NCBI RefSeq assembly: GCF_003018255.1
Contig: NZ_CP027440.1
DNA length: 64,000 nt
From: Escherichia coli
GTDB lineage: Bacteria > Pseudomonadota > Gammaproteobacteria > Enterobacterales > Enterobacteriaceae
Strand: one strand, 5' to 3'
The position numbers and the translations under genes were made by a program. The notes below the pieces were generated by a model. That model had not been told where the DNA came from and did not search any database. It saw only the letters and a list, made by a program, of their open reading frames with translations. Shown piece after piece: positions 1-60,317 of this stretch; positions within the stretch are counted from its first letter, which is position 1, and every line of letters begins with the position of its first letter.

Positions 1-165
1 CTCATCAAGCGAACATAATTAATACTGACTTGTTTTGCGTGATAAATAATAGATGTTCTCACGCTCTTAATTATTTAGCAGGTTATCTGAACGCGAAACA
101 TTATTGCCACATGGATAATAAAGCGGGAAATAATTTTCCATTAATAAGACAGAGTAATGTAAACG

Positions 166-196
166 AAGCCGGATGATATTAACGATCATCCGGCTT
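166..196. terminator. Perfect 10-bp inverted repeat (gccggatgat / atcatccggc) just downstream of the glcA stop; candidate terminator
   Basis: Inverted repeat read directly from sequence, flanked by T/A-rich runs on both strands. Confidence 0.45.
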
Positions 197-203
197 TATT
201 GAC

Positions 204-1886
204 TTACGAAACTAACATCCCGGTAAACACATACGCCTGCAACAGCGTGATAATGCCGATAACGCTGGCAAAAATCAGACTGTGCTTCACGGTGTAGCGG
301 AACAGTTCAGATTCCCGGCCCACCATGCCCGTCGCGGCGCAGGCCACGGCGATAGATTGCGGGGAGATCATCTTGCCAGTTACGCCGCCGCTGGTATTTG
401 CTGCCACCAGCAGGGTGTCAGAGACGTTGATTTGCTGCGCCGTGGTCGATTGCAGTGAACCAAACAGGGCGTTAGAGGAGGTGTCCGAGCCGGTAAGGAA
501 TACGCCCAGCCAGCCGAGAAACGGTGAGAAAAACGGGAACATTACGCCTGTACCAGCCAGTACCAGCGCCAGCGTGGTGGACATGCCGGAATAGTTGGTC
601 ACGAAGGCAAATGCCAGCACCATGCCAATCGACAGTATCGGCCACTTCAGACTAATTAGCGTTTCGGCAAAGACACCAATACCTTTCTTGATCCCCACGC
701 CGAGGATGAAGATCGAGATAATCGCCGCAATAAAAATAGCGGTGCCACCAGCAGAGAGGGGGTCGAATTTAAACACCGCGTCCATTGGCGTCGGCTGGGC
801 GACAATGGGGGCCGCTTTCAACACTTGTTGATGCAAATGAGGGATCTGGAAATTAATCACCAGCGAATAAAACGCGCCGCCCGGAGCAAATAACGCTTTA
901 AACGGCTTCATGGTCCAGATGGTGACCAACACCGTTAAGATTAAAAACGGTGACCACGCACGAATGATTTGCCCCAGACGATATTCTGAAGGCACGGGAC
1001 CGCCAGAAGACGGTTTATTCACCACCATCGCACCTGCGGATTGTCCCATACTGATTGCCGTTTCGGTATTTTTTGGCCGCCAGACTTTAAGAAATAAAGA
1101 AAGTGAGACGATACTCACCAGCGCCGAAGTAATATCCGGCAGTTCCGGACCAATATAGTTAGAGGTAAAGAACTGAGTGACAGCGAAGCTTCCCCCTGCA
1201 ACCAGCGCCGCTGGCCACGTCTCTTTCACCCCTTTCCAGCCGTCCATCATTGCTACCAGCCAGAACGGCACAAGAACCGACAGGAACGGTAACTGACGTC
1301 CCGCCATTGCGCCAATGTCGAACGGATCGATTCCCGTTACCTGACCGGCGACCAGAATTGGCACACCCAACGCACCAAACGCCACCGGCGCAGTGTTGGC
1401 AATCAGACACAGCCCCGCCGCGTATAGCGGTTTGAAGCCCAGGCCCACCAGTAGAGCACCGGTAATCGCCACCGGTGCGCCAAAGCCAGCCGCCCCTTCC
1501 AGCAGCGCACCAAAGGAGAAACCAATCAGTAACACCTGCAAACGCTGATCGTCGGTGATGGAGATAACCGAGCTGCGGATAATATCGAACTGGCCGCTGG
1601 CAACGGTTAATTTATACAGGAATACCGCCGCGACAATAATCCACGCAATAGGCCATAAACCATAAATAAAGCCATAGCCTGCAGCAGCAAATGCCATATC
1701 AATCGGCATTTTAAAGGCGAATATCGCAATCAGAATAGATAATATAAGGGTTATTGCTCCAGCGACATGTCCTTTCAGACGTAATACCGCGAGTGCAACG
1801 AAGAAGAATATTATTGGGATCAGGGCGACCAGAGCGGATAGCCCCAGTCCTCCCATCGGCATATACATTTGGGTCCAGGTAACCAT
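204..1886 (-). CDS. glcA: Glycolate/lactate permease (LctP family), 560 aa
   Basis: Full-length ORF; protein recognised as GlcA; length matches K-12 (560 aa); position downstream of glcB. Confidence 0.93.
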
Positions 1887-2200
1887 ATTGTTCAGTCTCT
1901 TATTATCTTTATATGCTTGATATACTTAAGGTTGTAATAAGCAAAAGAGGACTGAACTGTAAAATATAGGCGTTATACTTTACAGCAACAGTACGCCGCT
2001 AACGCAATTGCTACCTCTGGCATAACAAGTATATCGGGTAAGGGTTTCTGTTCCGCACACGCAGGCGCAGAGTATCGTTAAGATGTCCATATTGTTGTTT
2101 TAATCCCGCTAGTGATGCGCTACGGGTATTTAATATTGTTAACCCCTGATAATCGCTCCGGTTATTTCCGGGATAAATGTACTACCGCAGTTACTATCAT

Positions 2201-2234
2201 AGCCCCGACAATAAATCTTGCCGGGGCTTTTTTT
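2201..2234 (+). terminator. Hairpin (gccccg...cggggc) followed by a 7-T run on the plus strand, 8 nt beyond the glcB stop
   Basis: GC stem plus T-tract read from sequence; canonical intrinsic-terminator geometry only on the plus strand. Confidence 0.4.
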
Positions 2235-2241
2235 GACGCTA

Positions 2242-4413
2242 TTAATGATTTTCTTTTTCGCGTAAACGCCATGCGTGTAATAACGGTTCGGTATAGCCGT
2301 TTGGCTGTTTCACTCCGAGGAAGATCAAATCGCAGGCAGCTTTAAAAGCACACGAGTTAGCGAAATTCTCCACCATTGGACGATAAGCCGGATCGCCAGC
2401 GTTTTGCTGATCAACCACTTTCGCCATATTCTCCAGCGACGCCTGCACCTGATCTTTGGTCAGAATACCGTGACGTAACCAGTTGGCGATATGCTGGCTG
2501 GAAATACGCAGCGTTGCGCGGTCTTCCATCAACGCCACGTTGTGAATATCCGGCACTTTTGAACAACCAATCCCCTGCTCCACCCAACGCACCACGTACC
2601 CCAGAATCCCCTGCACGTTGTTATCCAGCTCTTGTTGGATCTCTTGCGCCGACCAATTAGCGTTTTCAGCAACCGGAATAGTCAGCAGATCGTCCAGCAG
2701 CGGTTCAAATTCAGCATTGAACTCGGTCTGGGCAATGTTGGCTTGCACGCTCTGTACGTTGGTTTGGTGGTAGTGCAGCGCATGGAGCGTAGCGGCAGTT
2801 GGCGACGGAACCCAGGCCGTGTTTGCCCCGGCACGCAATTGGTCGCCCTTCTGGCTGTACATGTCTGCCATCAGGTCCGGCATTGCCCACATGCCTTTAC
2901 CGATTTGCGCTTTTCCACGTAGCCCACAGAACAGACCGGAAAGCACGTTATTACGTTCGTAGGCTTTGATCCACGGCGTCGATTTCATCTGGTTTTTACG
3001 CAGCATCGGGCCCGCTTCCATCACCGAATGCATTTCATCGCCGGTACGGTCGAGGAAACCGGTATTGATGAACGCCACGCGGTTGCGCGCCTGAGCGATA
3101 CAGCTACGCAAGTTCAGCGAGGTCCGGCGTTCTTCATCCATAATGCCCATTTTCAGGGTATTCGGTGCCATACCGAGCATTGTCTCAACGCGGGAAAACA
3201 GTTTGTTGGCGAACGCCACTTCCTGCGGACCGTGCATTTTCGGTTTCACAATATAGACGCTGCCAGTGCGCGAGTTTTTCTGCACTTTTAAATCATAGAG
3301 GGCAATCGCGCCAGTCATGACGCCATCAAGAATGCCTTCCGGGATTTCATTGCCTTCGCTGTCCCAAATCACAGGAATGGTCATCAAATGACCCACGTTG
3401 CGGATAAACAGCAACGAGCGTCCGTGCAGAGAAATTTCAGATCCATCGGCGGCAGTGTACTGACGATCGTCATTCAGTTTACGCACGATTTGCCGACCGT
3501 TCTTCTCCATTTTCTCTTGCAGAGTCCCCTGCATCAGGCCCAGCAGGTTGCGGTACAGCAGGATTTTATCTTCCGCATCAACCGCCGCAACCGAATCTTC
3601 GCAGTCGAGAATGGTACTGATGGCCGCTTCGACGATAACATCGTTGATGTGCGCCGAATCGTCTTTGCCAATCCGCCCGTTGGCATCGATTTGTAGCTCA
3701 ATATGCAGGCCGTTATTTTTCAGCAAAATGCAGGTCAGCGCAGCAGTATCGCCACGGTAACCGACAAACTGTGCTGGAGTACGTAACGTGGTTTCTTTAC
3801 CATTTTTCAACTGGATGCGTAATTGTTTATCGACCACCTTAAACGCCACCACATCCTGATAGCTGCCGTTTTCCAGCGGTAGTGATTCATCGAGGAAACG
3901 CCGAACCCAGGCGATAACCTGCTCACCACGCTGCGGATCGTAGCCGCTGACCATCGCCCCTTCCTGCGGGATGATGTCACTGCCGTATAACGCATCGTAC
4001 AGTGAGCCCCAGCGAGCGTTCGCCGCGTTCAGCGCGTAGCGGGCGTTCATCGCCGGAACCACCAGCTGTGGCCCCGCCTGACTGGTGATTTCGCTGTCGA
4101 TGCCCGTGGTTTCCACCGTAACGTGGTCAGGCTGTGGCACCAGGTAGCCCAGTTCACGCAGGAAAGATTTATAGGCCGCTTTATCTTTTACCGGCCCCGG
4201 ATTGCTGCGATGCCACTCATCAAGCGCCGCCTGAATGCGATCACGCTCTGCCAGCAACTGACGATTCTCTGGCGCCAGATCGTGAACGATCTCATCAACA
4301 TTGCGCCAGAACGCGGCAGCGTCCAGTTCCACGCCCGGCAAAACTTCTTCATCCACAAAACGTTTAAAATTGGCGTCAATGCGTAAACGGCCCTGGGTTA
4401 TGGTTTGACTCAT
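2242..4413 (-). CDS. glcB: Malate synthase G, 723 aa
   Basis: ORF length and N-terminus ([13 protein letters not shown]...) match malate synthase G. Confidence 0.95.
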
Positions 4414-4434
4414 TGTTTCTCTCCTCGTTTTCGC

Positions 4435-4839
4435 TTATTTCGCCAACACCGCTGCTGCCGCTTTCGCGACCTGCGCATCCTGTGCTCCGGTTAAACCAGA
4501 AACGCCCACGGCACCAATAATTTGCCCATCAACAACAACCGGTACGCCGCCTTCCAGCGACGTCAGTAACGGCGCAGTCACGAACGCGGTACGTCCGTTG
4601 TTCACCATCTCTTCATAGCCCTTAGTTTCACGACGCCCCAGCGCGGCGGTACGCGCTTTCTCCTGGGAGATGTAAGCCGCAATCGGCGCGCAATCGTCCA
4701 TGCGACTTAACGCCAGCAGATGACCGCCGTCATCGGCAACAGCAATGGAAACAGACCAGTTGTTTTTCTGCGCCTCTTCCTGACCTGCGGCAATAATTGC
4801 ACTCGCCATTTGCTGGCTAAGAATGACTTTAGTTTTCAT
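4435..4839 (-). CDS. glcG: GlcG (heme-binding GlcG/HbpS family), 134 aa
   Basis: Track ORF trimmed to internal ATG (MKTKVILSQQ...) giving the K-12 length; glc operon context. Confidence 0.88.
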   Translation of the reverse strand: MKTKVILSQQMASAIIAAGQEEAQKNNWSVSIAVADDGGHLLALSRMDDCAPIAAYISQEKARTAALGRRETKGYEEMVNNGRTAFVTAPLLTSLEGGVPVVVDGQIIGAVGVSGLTGAQDAQVAKAAAAVLAK

Positions 4840-14080: not shown

Positions 14081-15252
14081 TGGGGCTATACGATAAATAT
14101 GCGCGCCTTGCTGGCGAGCGCCTGCAATTTAGTGACAACGGGTTAACACCATTTGGCACCTGTATTGATGAAGTGTATTCCGCCACCGAAGGCCGGATCG
14201 GCAATAAAAAAGTGATTCTGGCCGGGACCAATAATTATCTCGGTTTAACCTTTAATCATGATGCTATCCGCGAAGGTCAGGCAGCGTTAGCGGCCCAAGG
14301 CACTGGCACCACCGGTTCTCGTATGGCAAACGGCAGTTATGCGCCGCATCTGGCGTTAGAGAAAGAGATTGCCGAGTTTTTCAATCGCCCTACCGCTATC
14401 GTTTTTTCAACCGGTTATACCGCTAATTTAGGTGTCATCAGCGCACTTGCCGACCATAACGCCGTGGTGTTACTGGATGCCGACAGCCACGCCAGTATTT
14501 ATGACGCCTGTTCTCTCGGCGGCGCAGAGATTATTCGTTTCCGCCATAATGACGTCAACGATCTGGAACGGCGCATGGTCCGCCTCGGTGAACGGGCGAA
14601 AGAGGCGATTATTATCGTTGAAGGCATCTACAGTATGCTCGGTGACGTTGCGCCGCTGGCAGAAATTGTTGATATCAAACGTCGTCTCGGTGGTTATTTG
14701 ATTGTCGATGAAGCACATTCGTTTGGCGTGTTAGGCGCAACAGGCCGCGGACTGGTTGAAGCCGTTGGCGTTGAAGACGACGTGGATATTATCGTCGGCA
14801 CCTTCAGTAAAAGTTTGGCTTCCATTGGTGGTTTTGCCGTGGGTTCAGAAGCGATGGAAGTGCTGCGCTACGGCAGCCGCCCGTATATTTTTACCGCCTC
14901 TCCTTCTCCGTCCTGCATTGCGACCGTGCGCTCGTCGTTAAGAACCATTTCCACACAACCAGAGCTGCGGCAAAAACTGATGGATAACGCCAACAATCTG
15001 TATGACGGTCTGCAAAAACTGGGTTATGAGTTAAGTTCACATATTAGCCCGGTAGTGCCAGTAATAATCGGTTCGAAAGAGGAAGGTTTACGCATCTGGC
15101 GCGAGCTTATTTCGCTGGGCGTTTATGTGAATCTTATCCTGCCACCTGCCGCGCCTGCAGGCATCACGCTGCTGCGCTGTAGCGTAAACGCTGCCCACAG
15201 TCGTGAGCAAATCGATGCCATCATTCAGGCATTTGCTACTCTGAAGCAGTAA
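14080..15252 (+). CDS. PLP-dependent alpha-oxoamine synthase, serine-palmitoyltransferase-like, 390 aa
   Basis: Class-II aminotransferase fold with PLP-lysine motif GTFSKSLASIGG; distinct from BioF and Kbl; translationally coupled to the ACP gene. Confidence 0.8.
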   Translation: MGLYDKYARLAGERLQFSDNGLTPFGTCIDEVYSATEGRIGNKKVILAGTNNYLGLTFNHDAIREGQAALAAQGTGTTGSRMANGSYAPHLALEKEIAEFFNRPTAIVFSTGYTANLGVISALADHNAVVLLDADSHASIYDACSLGGAEIIRFRHNDVNDLERRMVRLGERAKEAIIIVEGIYSMLGDVAPLAEIVDIKRRLGGYLIVDEAHSFGVLGATGRGLVEAVGVEDDVDIIVGTFSKSLASIGGFAVGSEAMEVLRYGSRPYIFTASPSPSCIATVRSSLRTISTQPELRQKLMDNANNLYDGLQKLGYELSSHISPVVPVIIGSKEEGLRIWRELISLGVYVNLILPPAAPAGITLLRCSVNAAHSREQIDAIIQAFATLKQ

Positions 15253-58491: not shown

Positions 58492-58499
58492 CTTCTCTG

Positions 58500-58536
58500 T
58501 CTATGAGAGCCGTTAAAACGACTCTCATAGACTTTA
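58500..58536. terminator. Convergent terminator hairpin between qseC and ygiZ
   Basis: Perfect 10-bp stem tctatgagag / ctctcataga followed by tttact. Confidence 0.6.
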
Positions 58537-58869
58537 CTAATAGCAAAATATAAACCGTCCCCAAAAAAGCCACCAACCACAACCCAGACAAATAACGAGC
58601 GAGAATACATATAGCCAAAACTCGAACATTTCCCGCATAAAGAGTTTTCTTAAGATAAGAATAATAAGTGGTGTCAGAAGAAAAAATGCTGCAATCATTG
58701 CTTGCAATATACGATCTTCGCCTGAAACAGAAGGTATACTGCAAATATTGTCTCCCGACTCAAGCATCCAGTCATACTTATTGAAAGCAAAAAAAGAATC
58801 TATTAACCAATAAGTAAGCATTATATATAATAGTGCTTCAAATATTGATAGTAGTTGTTTTTTTAACAT
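58537..58869 (-). CDS. ygiZ: Small inner-membrane protein (three predicted TM helices), 110 aa; candidate immunity protein
   Basis: Length and position match K-12 ygiZ; start lies 6 bp after the stop of the upstream SLT-like gene; AT-rich. Confidence 0.85.
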   Translation of the reverse strand: MLKKQLLSIFEALLYIMLTYWLIDSFFAFNKYDWMLESGDNICSIPSVSGEDRILQAMIAAFFLLTPLIILILRKLFMREMFEFWLYVFSLVICLGCGWWLFWGRFIFCY

Positions 58870-58875
58870 ATCTGA

Positions 58876-59586
58876 TTACTCATTAATCAATTTTTTGATA
58901 TGTTCTCTAATCTCTAACAACCTCATACCATAAGAGATGAATTTATAATCATCTGTATCACGCGCAGGCAAATTATTAATTAAACAAATAAAAAAGCCCA
59001 AATCTCGTTCAACACCACGATTATATCTAATACCAGCCATAATATACTGCTCATTCGTCATATACAGTGTTGCCGAAGAGGGATAATCAAAAAGGACAAG
59101 ATCTCTTAAATAAGTAGCAGCAATTTGAAAGGTAAAATCATCCTCCATTAGGCATGTCGCTAACTCTAACTGATTTCTGGTAGTTAATTCTGAAGGGTCT
59201 AGACCTAGAGTAATCGCTGCGGTTCGTATTTGTATACCCATTGAGCCAAATGATGTTTTATTTTCAGGCATATCTAACAATCCCATCATTCTTTTTGTTT
59301 CATATATCTGAAACTTATAATTTTCAGGCATACCTCCTGACTCAATCCAGGCCACGCCGCCCAGTAACTCTGGACGAATTCCAGCGGCGTATGCATGTTT
59401 AATTATTTTGTCTCTATTATATTGTACATATGCATCTTTATAAGCATTTAAATAATATACTCCTGAACGGCGACGCGAATCATTTTTTCCTAACTTCCAG
59501 AGTAAAACGTCCATTTCATCCCATTTACGGAACTTCGCTTGTGGAATTGTACAATATCTATTTTTTATAGTGAGATCGCTTTTCAT
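58876..59586 (-). CDS. Lysozyme-like / SLT-domain protein, about 236 aa; putative Hcp-associated type VI effector
   Basis: Motifs in order: catalytic-type WIESGG, then GSMGIQI, then YNRG; ATG at 59586 lies 2 nt after the hcp stop with an AAGGA ribosome-binding site inside the hcp 3' end; track start (TTG, 59613) rejected. Confidence 0.55.
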   Translation of the reverse strand: MKSDLTIKNRYCTIPQAKFRKWDEMDVLLWKLGKNDSRRRSGVYYLNAYKDAYVQYNRDKIIKHAYAAGIRPELLGGVAWIESGGMPENYKFQIYETKRMMGLLDMPENKTSFGSMGIQIRTAAITLGLDPSELTTRNQLELATCLMEDDFTFQIAATYLRDLVLFDYPSSATLYMTNEQYIMAGIRYNRGVERDLGFFICLINNLPARDTDDYKFISYGMRLLEIREHIKKLINE

Positions 59587-59588
59587 AT

Positions 59589-60068
59589 TTAAAAAATCCT
59601 TTCTTCCCAACAACTATATGATTCCGTACTCGCGATATGGTGCTTCCATGTTATATTTTTATAATTAAGAACAATGACCTCTTCCGGCTGATTACCCGCA
59701 TGTGTAATTGAGTGTGGATAACATGTCAGAATATTCGATAAATGTGCTCCTTGCAATTCAATTGTGTAAAACCTTTCAATACAACCGCCAGAATTAACTC
59801 TATAAAAATTAAATACAGCTGATAACTCTTCATTTTCAGAAAGAGCGGCATTTAATAAAGGGGAGGATTTATCTATTGGCTTGTAAAATTTTATGGGGTG
59901 ATGCACTACATTATACTCTCGACTTAAAGAATGGTCGAACTGTAAAACAAAAATTTCATCCACATGATTTATTTGATATTTATTACCAATAGATGCATAC
60001 GAACCACAACCCTCAGAGATCAAACCTTGTATTTTCCCTTTAATTGATAAGTATATGATATTTGACAT
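59589..60068 (-). CDS. hcp: Type VI secretion tube protein Hcp (Hcp1 family), 159 aa, orphan copy
   Basis: Conserved Hcp blocks (H-P-F-K-ID-SSP-L, NITW, C-terminal WEER); no other type VI genes in the window. Confidence 0.85.
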   Translation of the reverse strand: MSNIIYLSIKGKIQGLISEGCGSYASIGNKYQINHVDEIFVLQFDHSLSREYNVVHHPIKFYKPIDKSSPLLNAALSENEELSAVFNFYRVNSGGCIERFYTIELQGAHLSNILTCYPHSITHAGNQPEEVIVLNYKNITWKHHIASTESYSCWEERIF

Positions 60069-60216
60069 ATATATTCTCCATAATCATTTTTTCCGAAAAA
60101 CTCCTGTATCATTTGCATAATACATCTCTCCTGTGGGAGCTTATGGGAAGTTGATTTAAGTATTGTCATTTTCAGAAAATATTTATCCCGCATCGGTGAA
60201 TCAGAGAAAGATCAGA

Positions 60217-60263
60217 CTTTTGCTAAATTCGCAAAAGACTTTGCACATTTTGCTAATTTCACC
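60217..60263 (+). promoter_or_regulatory. mdaB upstream element: 7-bp inverted repeat plus marbox-like sequence
   Basis: Palindrome cttttgc-N7-gcaaaag, a direct repeat of ttttgctaa(a)ttc, and tttGCACattttgctaattt resembling the MarA/SoxS/Rob box; a -10-like tactat lies about 20 bp downstream. Confidence 0.35.
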
Positions 60264-60317
60264 GTACCGCTCTGTGACGTACTATAGTCGGCAAACGTCT
60301 CACCTTGAGGTTAAAAA

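Follow-up and report, generated by a model that had tools for sequence, protein, structure and literature searches.

The gene ygiZ lies in a three-gene island between qseC and mdaB in the 64,000-nucleotide stretch of Escherichia coli DNA analyzed here (contig NZ_CP027440.1; the whole stretch is referred to as "the window", and positions are numbered within it). Comparisons of this locus across genomes and genera indicate that ygiZ is probably the immunity gene of a new family of Hcp-linked, lysozyme-like type VI secretion system (T6SS) effectors, and that the copy in strain K-12 is probably a retained orphan. An earlier reading of the window from its letters and open reading frames (ORFs), referred to as the sequence-only reading, had proposed ygiZ as a candidate immunity gene, which is supported computationally by the conservation of the gene unit across genera and by the co-divergence of YgiZ with the adjacent effector. 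Its further proposal that the K-12 gene may be an orphan gains support from an internal deletion in the island, from purifying selection on ygiZ, and from an effector stump in Serratia oryzae. Effector-immunity pairs and orphan immunity genes are of a known kind; the two protein families described here, and a polytopic immunity protein in such a pair, are new.

Directly after each effector homologue that was examined, with identity as low as 36% and hosts from at least ten genera, a small three-helix membrane protein is encoded. For homologues from 97% to 40% identity this downstream gene is always a DUF2645 gene, whatever the flanks, which include pagP/eamA, plasmid replication genes, the ackA region, a flagellar operon and uvrD. 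Among homologues 54-74% identical to the window effector, found in Pectobacterium, Chania, Serratia (on plasmids and the chromosome), Erwinia, Citrobacter, Pseudocitrobacter and the assembly GCA_965119215.1, the next gene encodes a DUF2645 protein of 108-112 amino acids, and hcp lies directly upstream in most of them; across the genera, Rahnella included, the partner measures 108-114 amino acids. At 40-42% effector identity (a Rahnella megaplasmid and a plasmid of Serratia JSRIV002) the next gene is still a DUF2645 gene, and the effector and DUF2645 genes of Serratia JSRIV002 have stayed together although hcp there is located downstream on the opposite strand. The sole case with a partner outside DUF2645 is the most distant homologue, on Cronobacter plasmids (36% effector identity), where the next gene encodes a 98-amino-acid protein with three hydrophobic segments and no hcp is annotated nearby. 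The order hcp-effector-ygiZ is no chance juxtaposition: the same order recurs in other genera and in unrelated genomic contexts. The island between qseC and mdaB is old, since Citrobacter werkmanii and two genomes of Pseudocitrobacter also have all three genes there. In the assembly GCA_965119215.1 (locus L025, positions 3020-4545) the cassette is inserted in a flagellar cluster between fliJ and fliI, and its DUF2645 ORF (4219-4545) was missed by the gene finder.

Pairwise divergences among 12 triplets were correlated most tightly between YgiZ and the effector (r = 0.95, Spearman 0.83), compared with 0.73 (0.53) for YgiZ and Hcp and 0.74 (0.49) for the effector and Hcp. This mirror-tree value lends only indirect support to direct binding between the two proteins. 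YgiZ evolves fastest of the three, with a mean divergence of 0.59 versus 0.35 and 0.34 for the others, or about 1.7 times the effector rate; immunity proteins typically diverge faster than effectors. The YgiZ clade is represented by just 30 sequences among 1.84 billion proteins in an exhaustive profile search, on par with the effector family, a narrow one of 34 clusters.

The features of the locus in the window are as follows.

58537-58869, minus strand: ygiZ, encoding a DUF2645 protein of 110 amino acids (ORF list, RefSeq match and Pfam match).
58876-59586 (from the ATG), minus strand: putative Hcp-cargo T6SS effector of 236 amino acids, "hypothetical protein" in RefSeq.
59589-60068, minus strand: orphan hcp (tssD), encoding 159 amino acids without a C-terminal extension (TIGR03344).
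60069-60213, minus strand: 5' region of hcp, the presumed cassette promoter.
60141-60213: island-specific stretch that is also found upstream of the K-12 orphan ygiZ (sequence alignment).
58492-60213: AT-rich island of 1.7 kb, bounded on one side by the qseC stop codon and on the other by the core mdaB upstream region (GC content and alignment).
58500-58531: perfect hairpin with a 10-bp outer and a 4-bp inner stem (read from the sequence).

The ygiZ start codon follows the effector stop codon by 6 nucleotides, and the effector ATG follows the hcp stop codon by 2. GC content is 0.29-0.39 over approximately 58.5-60.2 kb, compared with about 0.5 in the flanks. The ORFs and the GC profile thus bear out what had been said of the layout, namely that ygiZ starts 6 bp after the effector stop on the same strand within an AT-rich triplet. 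The hcp product matches TIGR03344 over its full length (E 2.2e-58) and is named "Hcp family type VI secretion system effector" in RefSeq. The island, which is flanked by convergent qseC and divergent mdaB, was delimited by aligning loci with the full triplet, loci of the K-12 type and loci of the O157 type; in O157-type genomes the qseC stop codon joins directly to sequence matching window position 60214. This AT-rich three-gene island has been acquired horizontally. The hairpin at 58500-58531 sits between the convergent stops of qseC and ygiZ, is kept in K-12-type loci and is missing from O157-type empty sites; it belongs to the island and probably acts as a bidirectional terminator, and a simple terminator scan missed it because there is no T-run after it on either strand. 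Just outside the island, in the core mdaB upstream region, a 21-nucleotide palindrome-like element (CTTTTGCGAATTTAGCAAAAG, 60217-60237) recurs in each of the three locus types and has been preserved in part in Citrobacter and Pseudocitrobacter. It scored as terminator-like on the minus strand, and it could instead be a binding site for an mdaB regulator.

When 5,426 complete E. coli genomes were compared, the interval next to mdaB was found in three states, in answer to the comparison that the sequence-only reading had proposed for it. The full triplet is present in 1,261 genomes (23%); ygiZ alone, as in K-12, in about 3,300 (61%); and neither ygiZ nor the effector gene in about 830 (15%), including O157-type strains, in which qseC leads straight to mdaB. 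Altogether, ygiZ occurs in 4,580 of these genomes (84%), and a query that included the effector matched one place per genome. The earlier statement that K-12 keeps ygiZ by mdaB without hcp or the effector is correct, the order in a K-12-type genome being qseC, ygiZ, mdaB.

Positions 142-318 of the K-12 intergenic region match window positions 60141-60317 at 94%, whereas the O157-type sequence matches the window only from 60214 onward. The K-12 type therefore retains ygiZ together with the 73 bp of island-specific sequence at 60141-60213, with 141 bp between them. As both ends of the island are kept, the K-12 arrangement arose by an internal deletion or replacement within the island and not by separate acquisition of ygiZ. 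The 141 bp upstream of K-12 ygiZ, when compared with hcp and the effector gene, gave a best local score that was reached by 27 of 300 shuffles and is not significant, and the sequence just upstream of ygiZ in Escherichia whittamii gave a profile match to the effector C-terminus that is not significant (E = 8.5). In 3,030 E. coli genomes the K-12-type junction occurs as a single copy and bears no annotation; E. whittamii has it too, at 89% identity, so that it reflects essentially one old event.

The K-12 YgiZ protein is 92% identical to the window allele, and its periplasmic loop is one residue off alleles that adjoin intact effectors. The ratio of nonsynonymous to synonymous substitution rates (dN/dS) of ygiZ, which can be estimated only roughly from this one 333-nucleotide gene, is 0.24-0.49 overall; a comparison of K-12 with paired E. 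coli alleles gives 0.26-0.31, and one of K-12 with E. whittamii, both of which carry orphans, gives 0.42. By these estimates, the orphan ygiZ is kept under purifying selection with no sign of relaxation. In Serratia oryzae J11-6 (locus L018, positions 2940-3321), all that remains of the effector gene ahead of an intact ygiZ homologue is its last 14 codons (QIRHHIRKLLGLNT-stop), and an ORF resembling a ParE-family toxin lies upstream of this stump; we take this to be an independent loss of the effector with the putative immunity gene retained. In E. coli OkiPb01708 (locus L021, positions 1440-1918), hcp is annotated as frameshifted while the effector gene and ygiZ are intact, and this triplet seems to be caught partway through the decay of the cassette. 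Many Shigella entries and some from E. coli carry a YgiZ that is cut to 79 amino acids or lengthened to 164 (proteins P0061, P0084 and P0094), which suggests that ygiZ has been disrupted or fused in those lineages.

The 236-amino-acid protein encoded upstream of ygiZ has no Pfam match even at E ≤ 10, no NCBIfam match, no significant match to a PDB sequence (best E 0.29) and no N-terminal hydrophobic signal segment. Its fold is alpha-helical and lysozyme-like (lytic-transglycosylase/lysozyme-like): MltE and Tse3 were the top matches in a Foldseek search, and phage LT_GEWL proteins and endolysins led when it was compared with a viral structure library. Three elements are invariant in 27 homologous sequences, E82 (in WIE[S/T/V/A]), Q119 and R187-Y-N-R-G191, and these correspond, as equated by inspection and not by structural superposition, to the E-S, Q and Y-N-x-G motifs of SLT domains. 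A 30-residue, low-confidence insertion (residues 85-116) separates the catalytic Glu motif from the second SLT motif. The sequence-only reading had guessed at a muramidase, and this holds at the level of the fold (SLT/lysozyme-like), but not as membership by sequence in a described Tge or SLT family. A size compatible with the Hcp ring is a feature of effectors that travel as Hcp cargo. A cargo T6SS effector is the best-supported reading of the modeled protein, because a wall-cutting fold is combined in it with the lack of an export signal, a size compatible with the Hcp ring, and a position directly after hcp.

An effector-like domain with 24% identity forms the extreme C-terminus of a 1,491-amino-acid protein on plasmid2 of Nostoc sp. 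HK-01, where polymorphic-toxin modules usually sit; the gene for this protein is followed by a truncated "arginyl-tRNA synthetase" gene (locus L033, positions 1-3148). Distant effector homologues were thus seen on plasmids of Nostoc, and also of Streptomyces. An E. coli-type effector gene, encoding a protein 97% identical to that of the window, is present on a 354-kb record listed as a plasmid (NZ_MG591698.1, 60214-60921), the only "plasmid" copy of this type.

The window YgiZ is 100% identical to the product of a UTI89 RefSeq gene annotated "ygiZ: DUF2645 family protein" and matches Pfam DUF2645 (PF10840) over residues 13-109 (E 7.8e-11). An AlphaFold2 (AF2) model has helices at residues 2-27, 50-77 and 81-110, with predicted local confidence (pLDDT) of 72-90. 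The three helices are hydrophobic, Lys and Arg abound at the N-terminus and in the 74-82 loop, and the 30-56 loop is net acidic. This charge distribution follows the positive-inside rule, and YgiZ is therefore predicted to be a three-helix inner-membrane protein with its N-terminus inside and its C-terminus outside (N-in/C-out). The 30-56 loop (NKYDWMLE.GDSICSIP) is the best conserved part of the family, and the C-terminus is hydrophobic (...WLFWGRFIFCY); two cysteines never vary, Cys43 within the loop and Cys109 near the C-terminal end. From the charge distribution and this pair of cysteines, the conserved loop, both cysteines and the C-terminus are predicted to be periplasmic, and the invariance of the cysteines suggests that a Cys43-Cys109 disulfide probably staples the loop into a knob. 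The sequence-only reading had cautioned that a polytopic immunity protein is more typical of membrane-targeting toxins than of muramidases. This caution stands, as the pairing of a polytopic immunity protein with a glycosidase-like effector is unusual; it is softened, and answered in part, by a predicted functional surface in the periplasm, where a wall-cutting toxin would act.

Several known systems resemble this cassette in part. Tse3/Tge1-Tsi3 of Pseudomonas aeruginosa and the Tge-Tgi families have no detectable sequence homology to the effector described here; Tge effectors are about 400 amino acids long, compared with 236, and Tsi3 and Tgi are soluble or lipoprotein periplasmic inhibitors, whereas YgiZ is a polytopic three-helix protein of the inner membrane. 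Tsi4, Tsi5, TsiV2 and Psi1/Psi2 are, like YgiZ, small multi-helix inner-membrane proteins encoded directly after an effector, but they counter pore-forming or membrane-disrupting toxins, while the YgiZ partner has a fold like that of peptidoglycan glycosidases. The order of genes is that of the hcp islands (Tae4-Tai4 and Tlde1-Tldi1 by hcp in Salmonella, and those of Pantoea, PMC9796082), in which hcp is followed by an effector of Hcp-ring size and then by an immunity gene, and both are mobile, AT-rich and present in some strains but absent from others. The cassette described here differs in being a stand-alone unit of three genes far from any T6SS cluster, in occurring on plasmids and at several chromosomal sites, and in its toxin and immunity families. 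Orphan immunity genes that likewise outlive their effectors are known from auxiliary clusters of Vibrio cholerae, from acquired interbacterial defence islands of Bacteroidales and, according to the discussion in PMC9796082, from Pantoea arrays. As in those cases, protection from toxin-bearing kin is predicted for K-12 ygiZ; unlike them, it stands alone at one fixed place on the chromosome of a host without a T6SS, and is not part of an immunity array. The published orphan hcp cases, Hcp2B-XmtU/XmtV and Hcp-ET, were considered and set aside, as they concern other loci.

These observations can be combined in a mechanism. Having no export signal, the effector would stay in the cytoplasm of the producer, probably inside the ring of the adjacent Hcp, until a T6SS encoded elsewhere in the genome fires it into the periplasm of neighboring cells. 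There, its SLT/goose-lysozyme-like domain, with the invariant Glu82, would cut the glycan strands of peptidoglycan. YgiZ, in its predicted N-in/C-out orientation, would expose to the periplasm the conserved acidic loop of 27 residues (NKYDWMLE.GD.ICSIP) and the C-terminal Cys, and the knob that the disulfide probably forms would bind the effector as it arrives, so blocking or sequestering it at the surface of the membrane. The ancestors of K-12 and of most E. coli would have lost hcp and the effector gene in one old deletion that spared ygiZ and the outer 73 bp, and ygiZ has since probably been kept as an orphan immunity gene, which would shield T6SS-less strains such as K-12 from the approximately one quarter of E. 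coli that bear the toxin.

Several points weigh against ygiZ being an immunity gene, or against the weight given to its retention. To our knowledge, the immunity proteins against T6SS peptidoglycan glycosidases (Tsi3/Tgi) are all soluble or lipoprotein periplasmic proteins and not polytopic ones, and the exposed part of YgiZ amounts to merely some 27 residues and a short tail. An AF2 model of YgiZ fused to the effector through (GGGGS)6, built with a 16-pair alignment, reached a predicted TM-score (pTM) of 0.32, with the effector unfolded at pLDDT 30-50 and the YgiZ helices alone confident, and so offers no support for an interface. The orphan arrangement in more than 3,000 genomes represents inheritance from one deletion and not repeated retention, and the dN/dS values are, as said, rough. 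Distant YjeO-like DUF2645 genes at four loci, from metagenomes and genomes, have no hcp or effector gene within 4 kb, and so the superfamily is not exclusively toxin-linked. Finally, the reported phenotypes of ygiZ are general envelope ones: its overexpression confers tolerance to sabinene and improves cell shape (PMC7181518), and its deletion is cited in PMC12844161 as raising transformation efficiency.

These last two points are also what one would expect if YgiZ were a general envelope or membrane-stress protein that hitch-hikes with the hcp cassette and has a housekeeping role in K-12. Besides the two phenotypes and the distant DUF2645 genes without a nearby effector, this explanation could draw on the K-12 ygiZ promoter, which is activated by BglJ-RcsB (PMC3950696), and on the 61% of E. 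coli genomes that have ygiZ without the effector. Expression of ygiZ in K-12 is poor when BglJ-RcsB is inactive. The published facts about ygiZ are all envelope-related and neither contradict nor establish an immunity role, and our literature search turned up no publication in which ygiZ or DUF2645 is connected with type VI secretion. A housekeeping role nevertheless appears improbable, given that the pair stays intact in at least ten genera, to 36-42% effector identity, between unrelated flanks and even where hcp is rearranged; that YgiZ co-diverges with the effector more tightly than either does with Hcp; that proteins of the YgiZ clade are no commoner in sequence space than those of the effector family; and that approximately 15% of E. 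coli lack ygiZ, which is hence dispensable. Even less probable, and in our judgment very much so, is that the 236-amino-acid protein is a peptidoglycan-remodeling helper or part of a holin-endolysin-like module, for which YgiZ would be the membrane partner that gives it access to the producer's own periplasm, for example so that the wall can be opened when a T6SS is assembled. Some T6SSs do recruit wall-cutting enzymes for their assembly, and a lytic-transglycosylase-like enzyme without a signal peptide that adjoins a three-helix membrane protein of about 100 amino acids superficially resembles a phage lysis pair; the enzyme also matches a PHROG family of unknown function (phrog_11932, E 3.7e-28). 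However, no copy of the enzyme was found by tblastn in about 50,000 phage records, and nothing would explain why purifying selection should maintain a transport partner for long once its cargo was gone. YgiZ as a phage holin was rejected: it matches no PHROG family, where holins end in a charged cytoplasmic tail, it has a hydrophobic C-terminus predicted to be periplasmic, in the opposite (N-in/C-out) orientation, its gene lies downstream and not upstream of the enzyme gene, and its overexpression from a T7 promoter is not lethal (PMC7181518), a tolerance that argues against a holin-like function. Both of these explanations match the comparative data poorly.

A further possibility is a variant of the immunity-gene reading and accepts the pairing as real, but places the target of the lysozyme-like toxin at the outer face of the inner membrane, for instance on membrane-bound lipid II or nascent lipid-linked glycan; YgiZ would then protect by shielding or competition at the membrane surface and would not plug a soluble enzyme. 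This would suit a YgiZ that is polytopic and membrane-embedded with a short exposed loop, as polytopic immunity proteins are more typical of membrane-acting toxins, and it would also suit the insertion at residues 85-116, which canonical lytic transglycosylases do not have, as well as the lack of sequence-level kinship between the effector and any characterized Tge or SLT family. On the other hand, the top structural matches are all enzymes that act on polymeric peptidoglycan, and no hydrophobic or amphipathic membrane-binding segment is evident in the effector sequence. We consider this variant unlikely, and continue to regard ygiZ as the probable immunity gene of an effector that would cut the polymeric wall.

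K-12 has a paralogue of YgiZ, YjeO, which is a core member of Pfam DUF2645 (E 4.3e-41). A direct BLASTP comparison of YjeO with YgiZ is insignificant, and the relation is visible only through Pfam, through hhalign (probability of 86% for the YgiZ clade versus YjeO) and through intermediates in Serratia and Rahnella: YjeO is 34% identical (E 5e-14) to the effector-paired DUF2645 protein of Serratia JSRIV002 and 28% identical to that of Rahnella. The yjeN-yjeO pair varies among E. coli: about 40% of genomes have both genes, some have just yjeO, and BL21 and O157 have neither; in the K-12-type genome NZ_CP042844.1 the two are located at positions 14468-15093 of locus L012. YjeN was considered as a fragment of an effector and rejected, as it has no similarity to the effector. 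These relationships raise the prospect that yjeO may be a second orphan immunity gene. A scan of genome contigs with a DUF2645 alignment yielded no more than 7 loci, owing to a narrow back-translated pattern. On one metagenome contig from JGI (locus L028, positions 3609-4351), two tandem DUF2645 genes encoding 117 and 116 amino acids are found downstream of an operon for an Mla-like ABC transporter, and neither hcp nor an effector gene is present within 4 kb; these tandem copies are, by analogy, reminiscent of immunity-gene arrays. It is conceivable, though we would put it forward only tentatively and consider it rather doubtful, that the whole DUF2645 family, including YgiZ and YjeO, consists of polytopic immunity proteins that act through a disulfide-stapled periplasmic loop against an undescribed lysozyme-like domain of T6SS and polymorphic toxins.

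If ygiZ is an immunity gene as proposed, a function would be assigned to this gene of K-12, and possibly also to its paralogue yjeO, and the T6SS repertoire would grow by one toxin family and one immunity family, both of them new. Neutralization of a peptidoglycan glycosidase-like enzyme by a three-helix membrane protein would also be an unusual mode of immunity. The qseC-mdaB interval is a three-state marker, according to which approximately 23% of complete E. coli genomes would be armed, 61% immune only and 15% naive, and its state would then predict killing of strain by strain, for example among B2 extraintestinal pathogens, commensals and O157. Should the reading extend to the whole of DUF2645, the family would represent a new way of inhibiting a cell-wall glycosidase, and K-12 would bear two "fossil" immunity genes that partly set which E. 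coli kill which.

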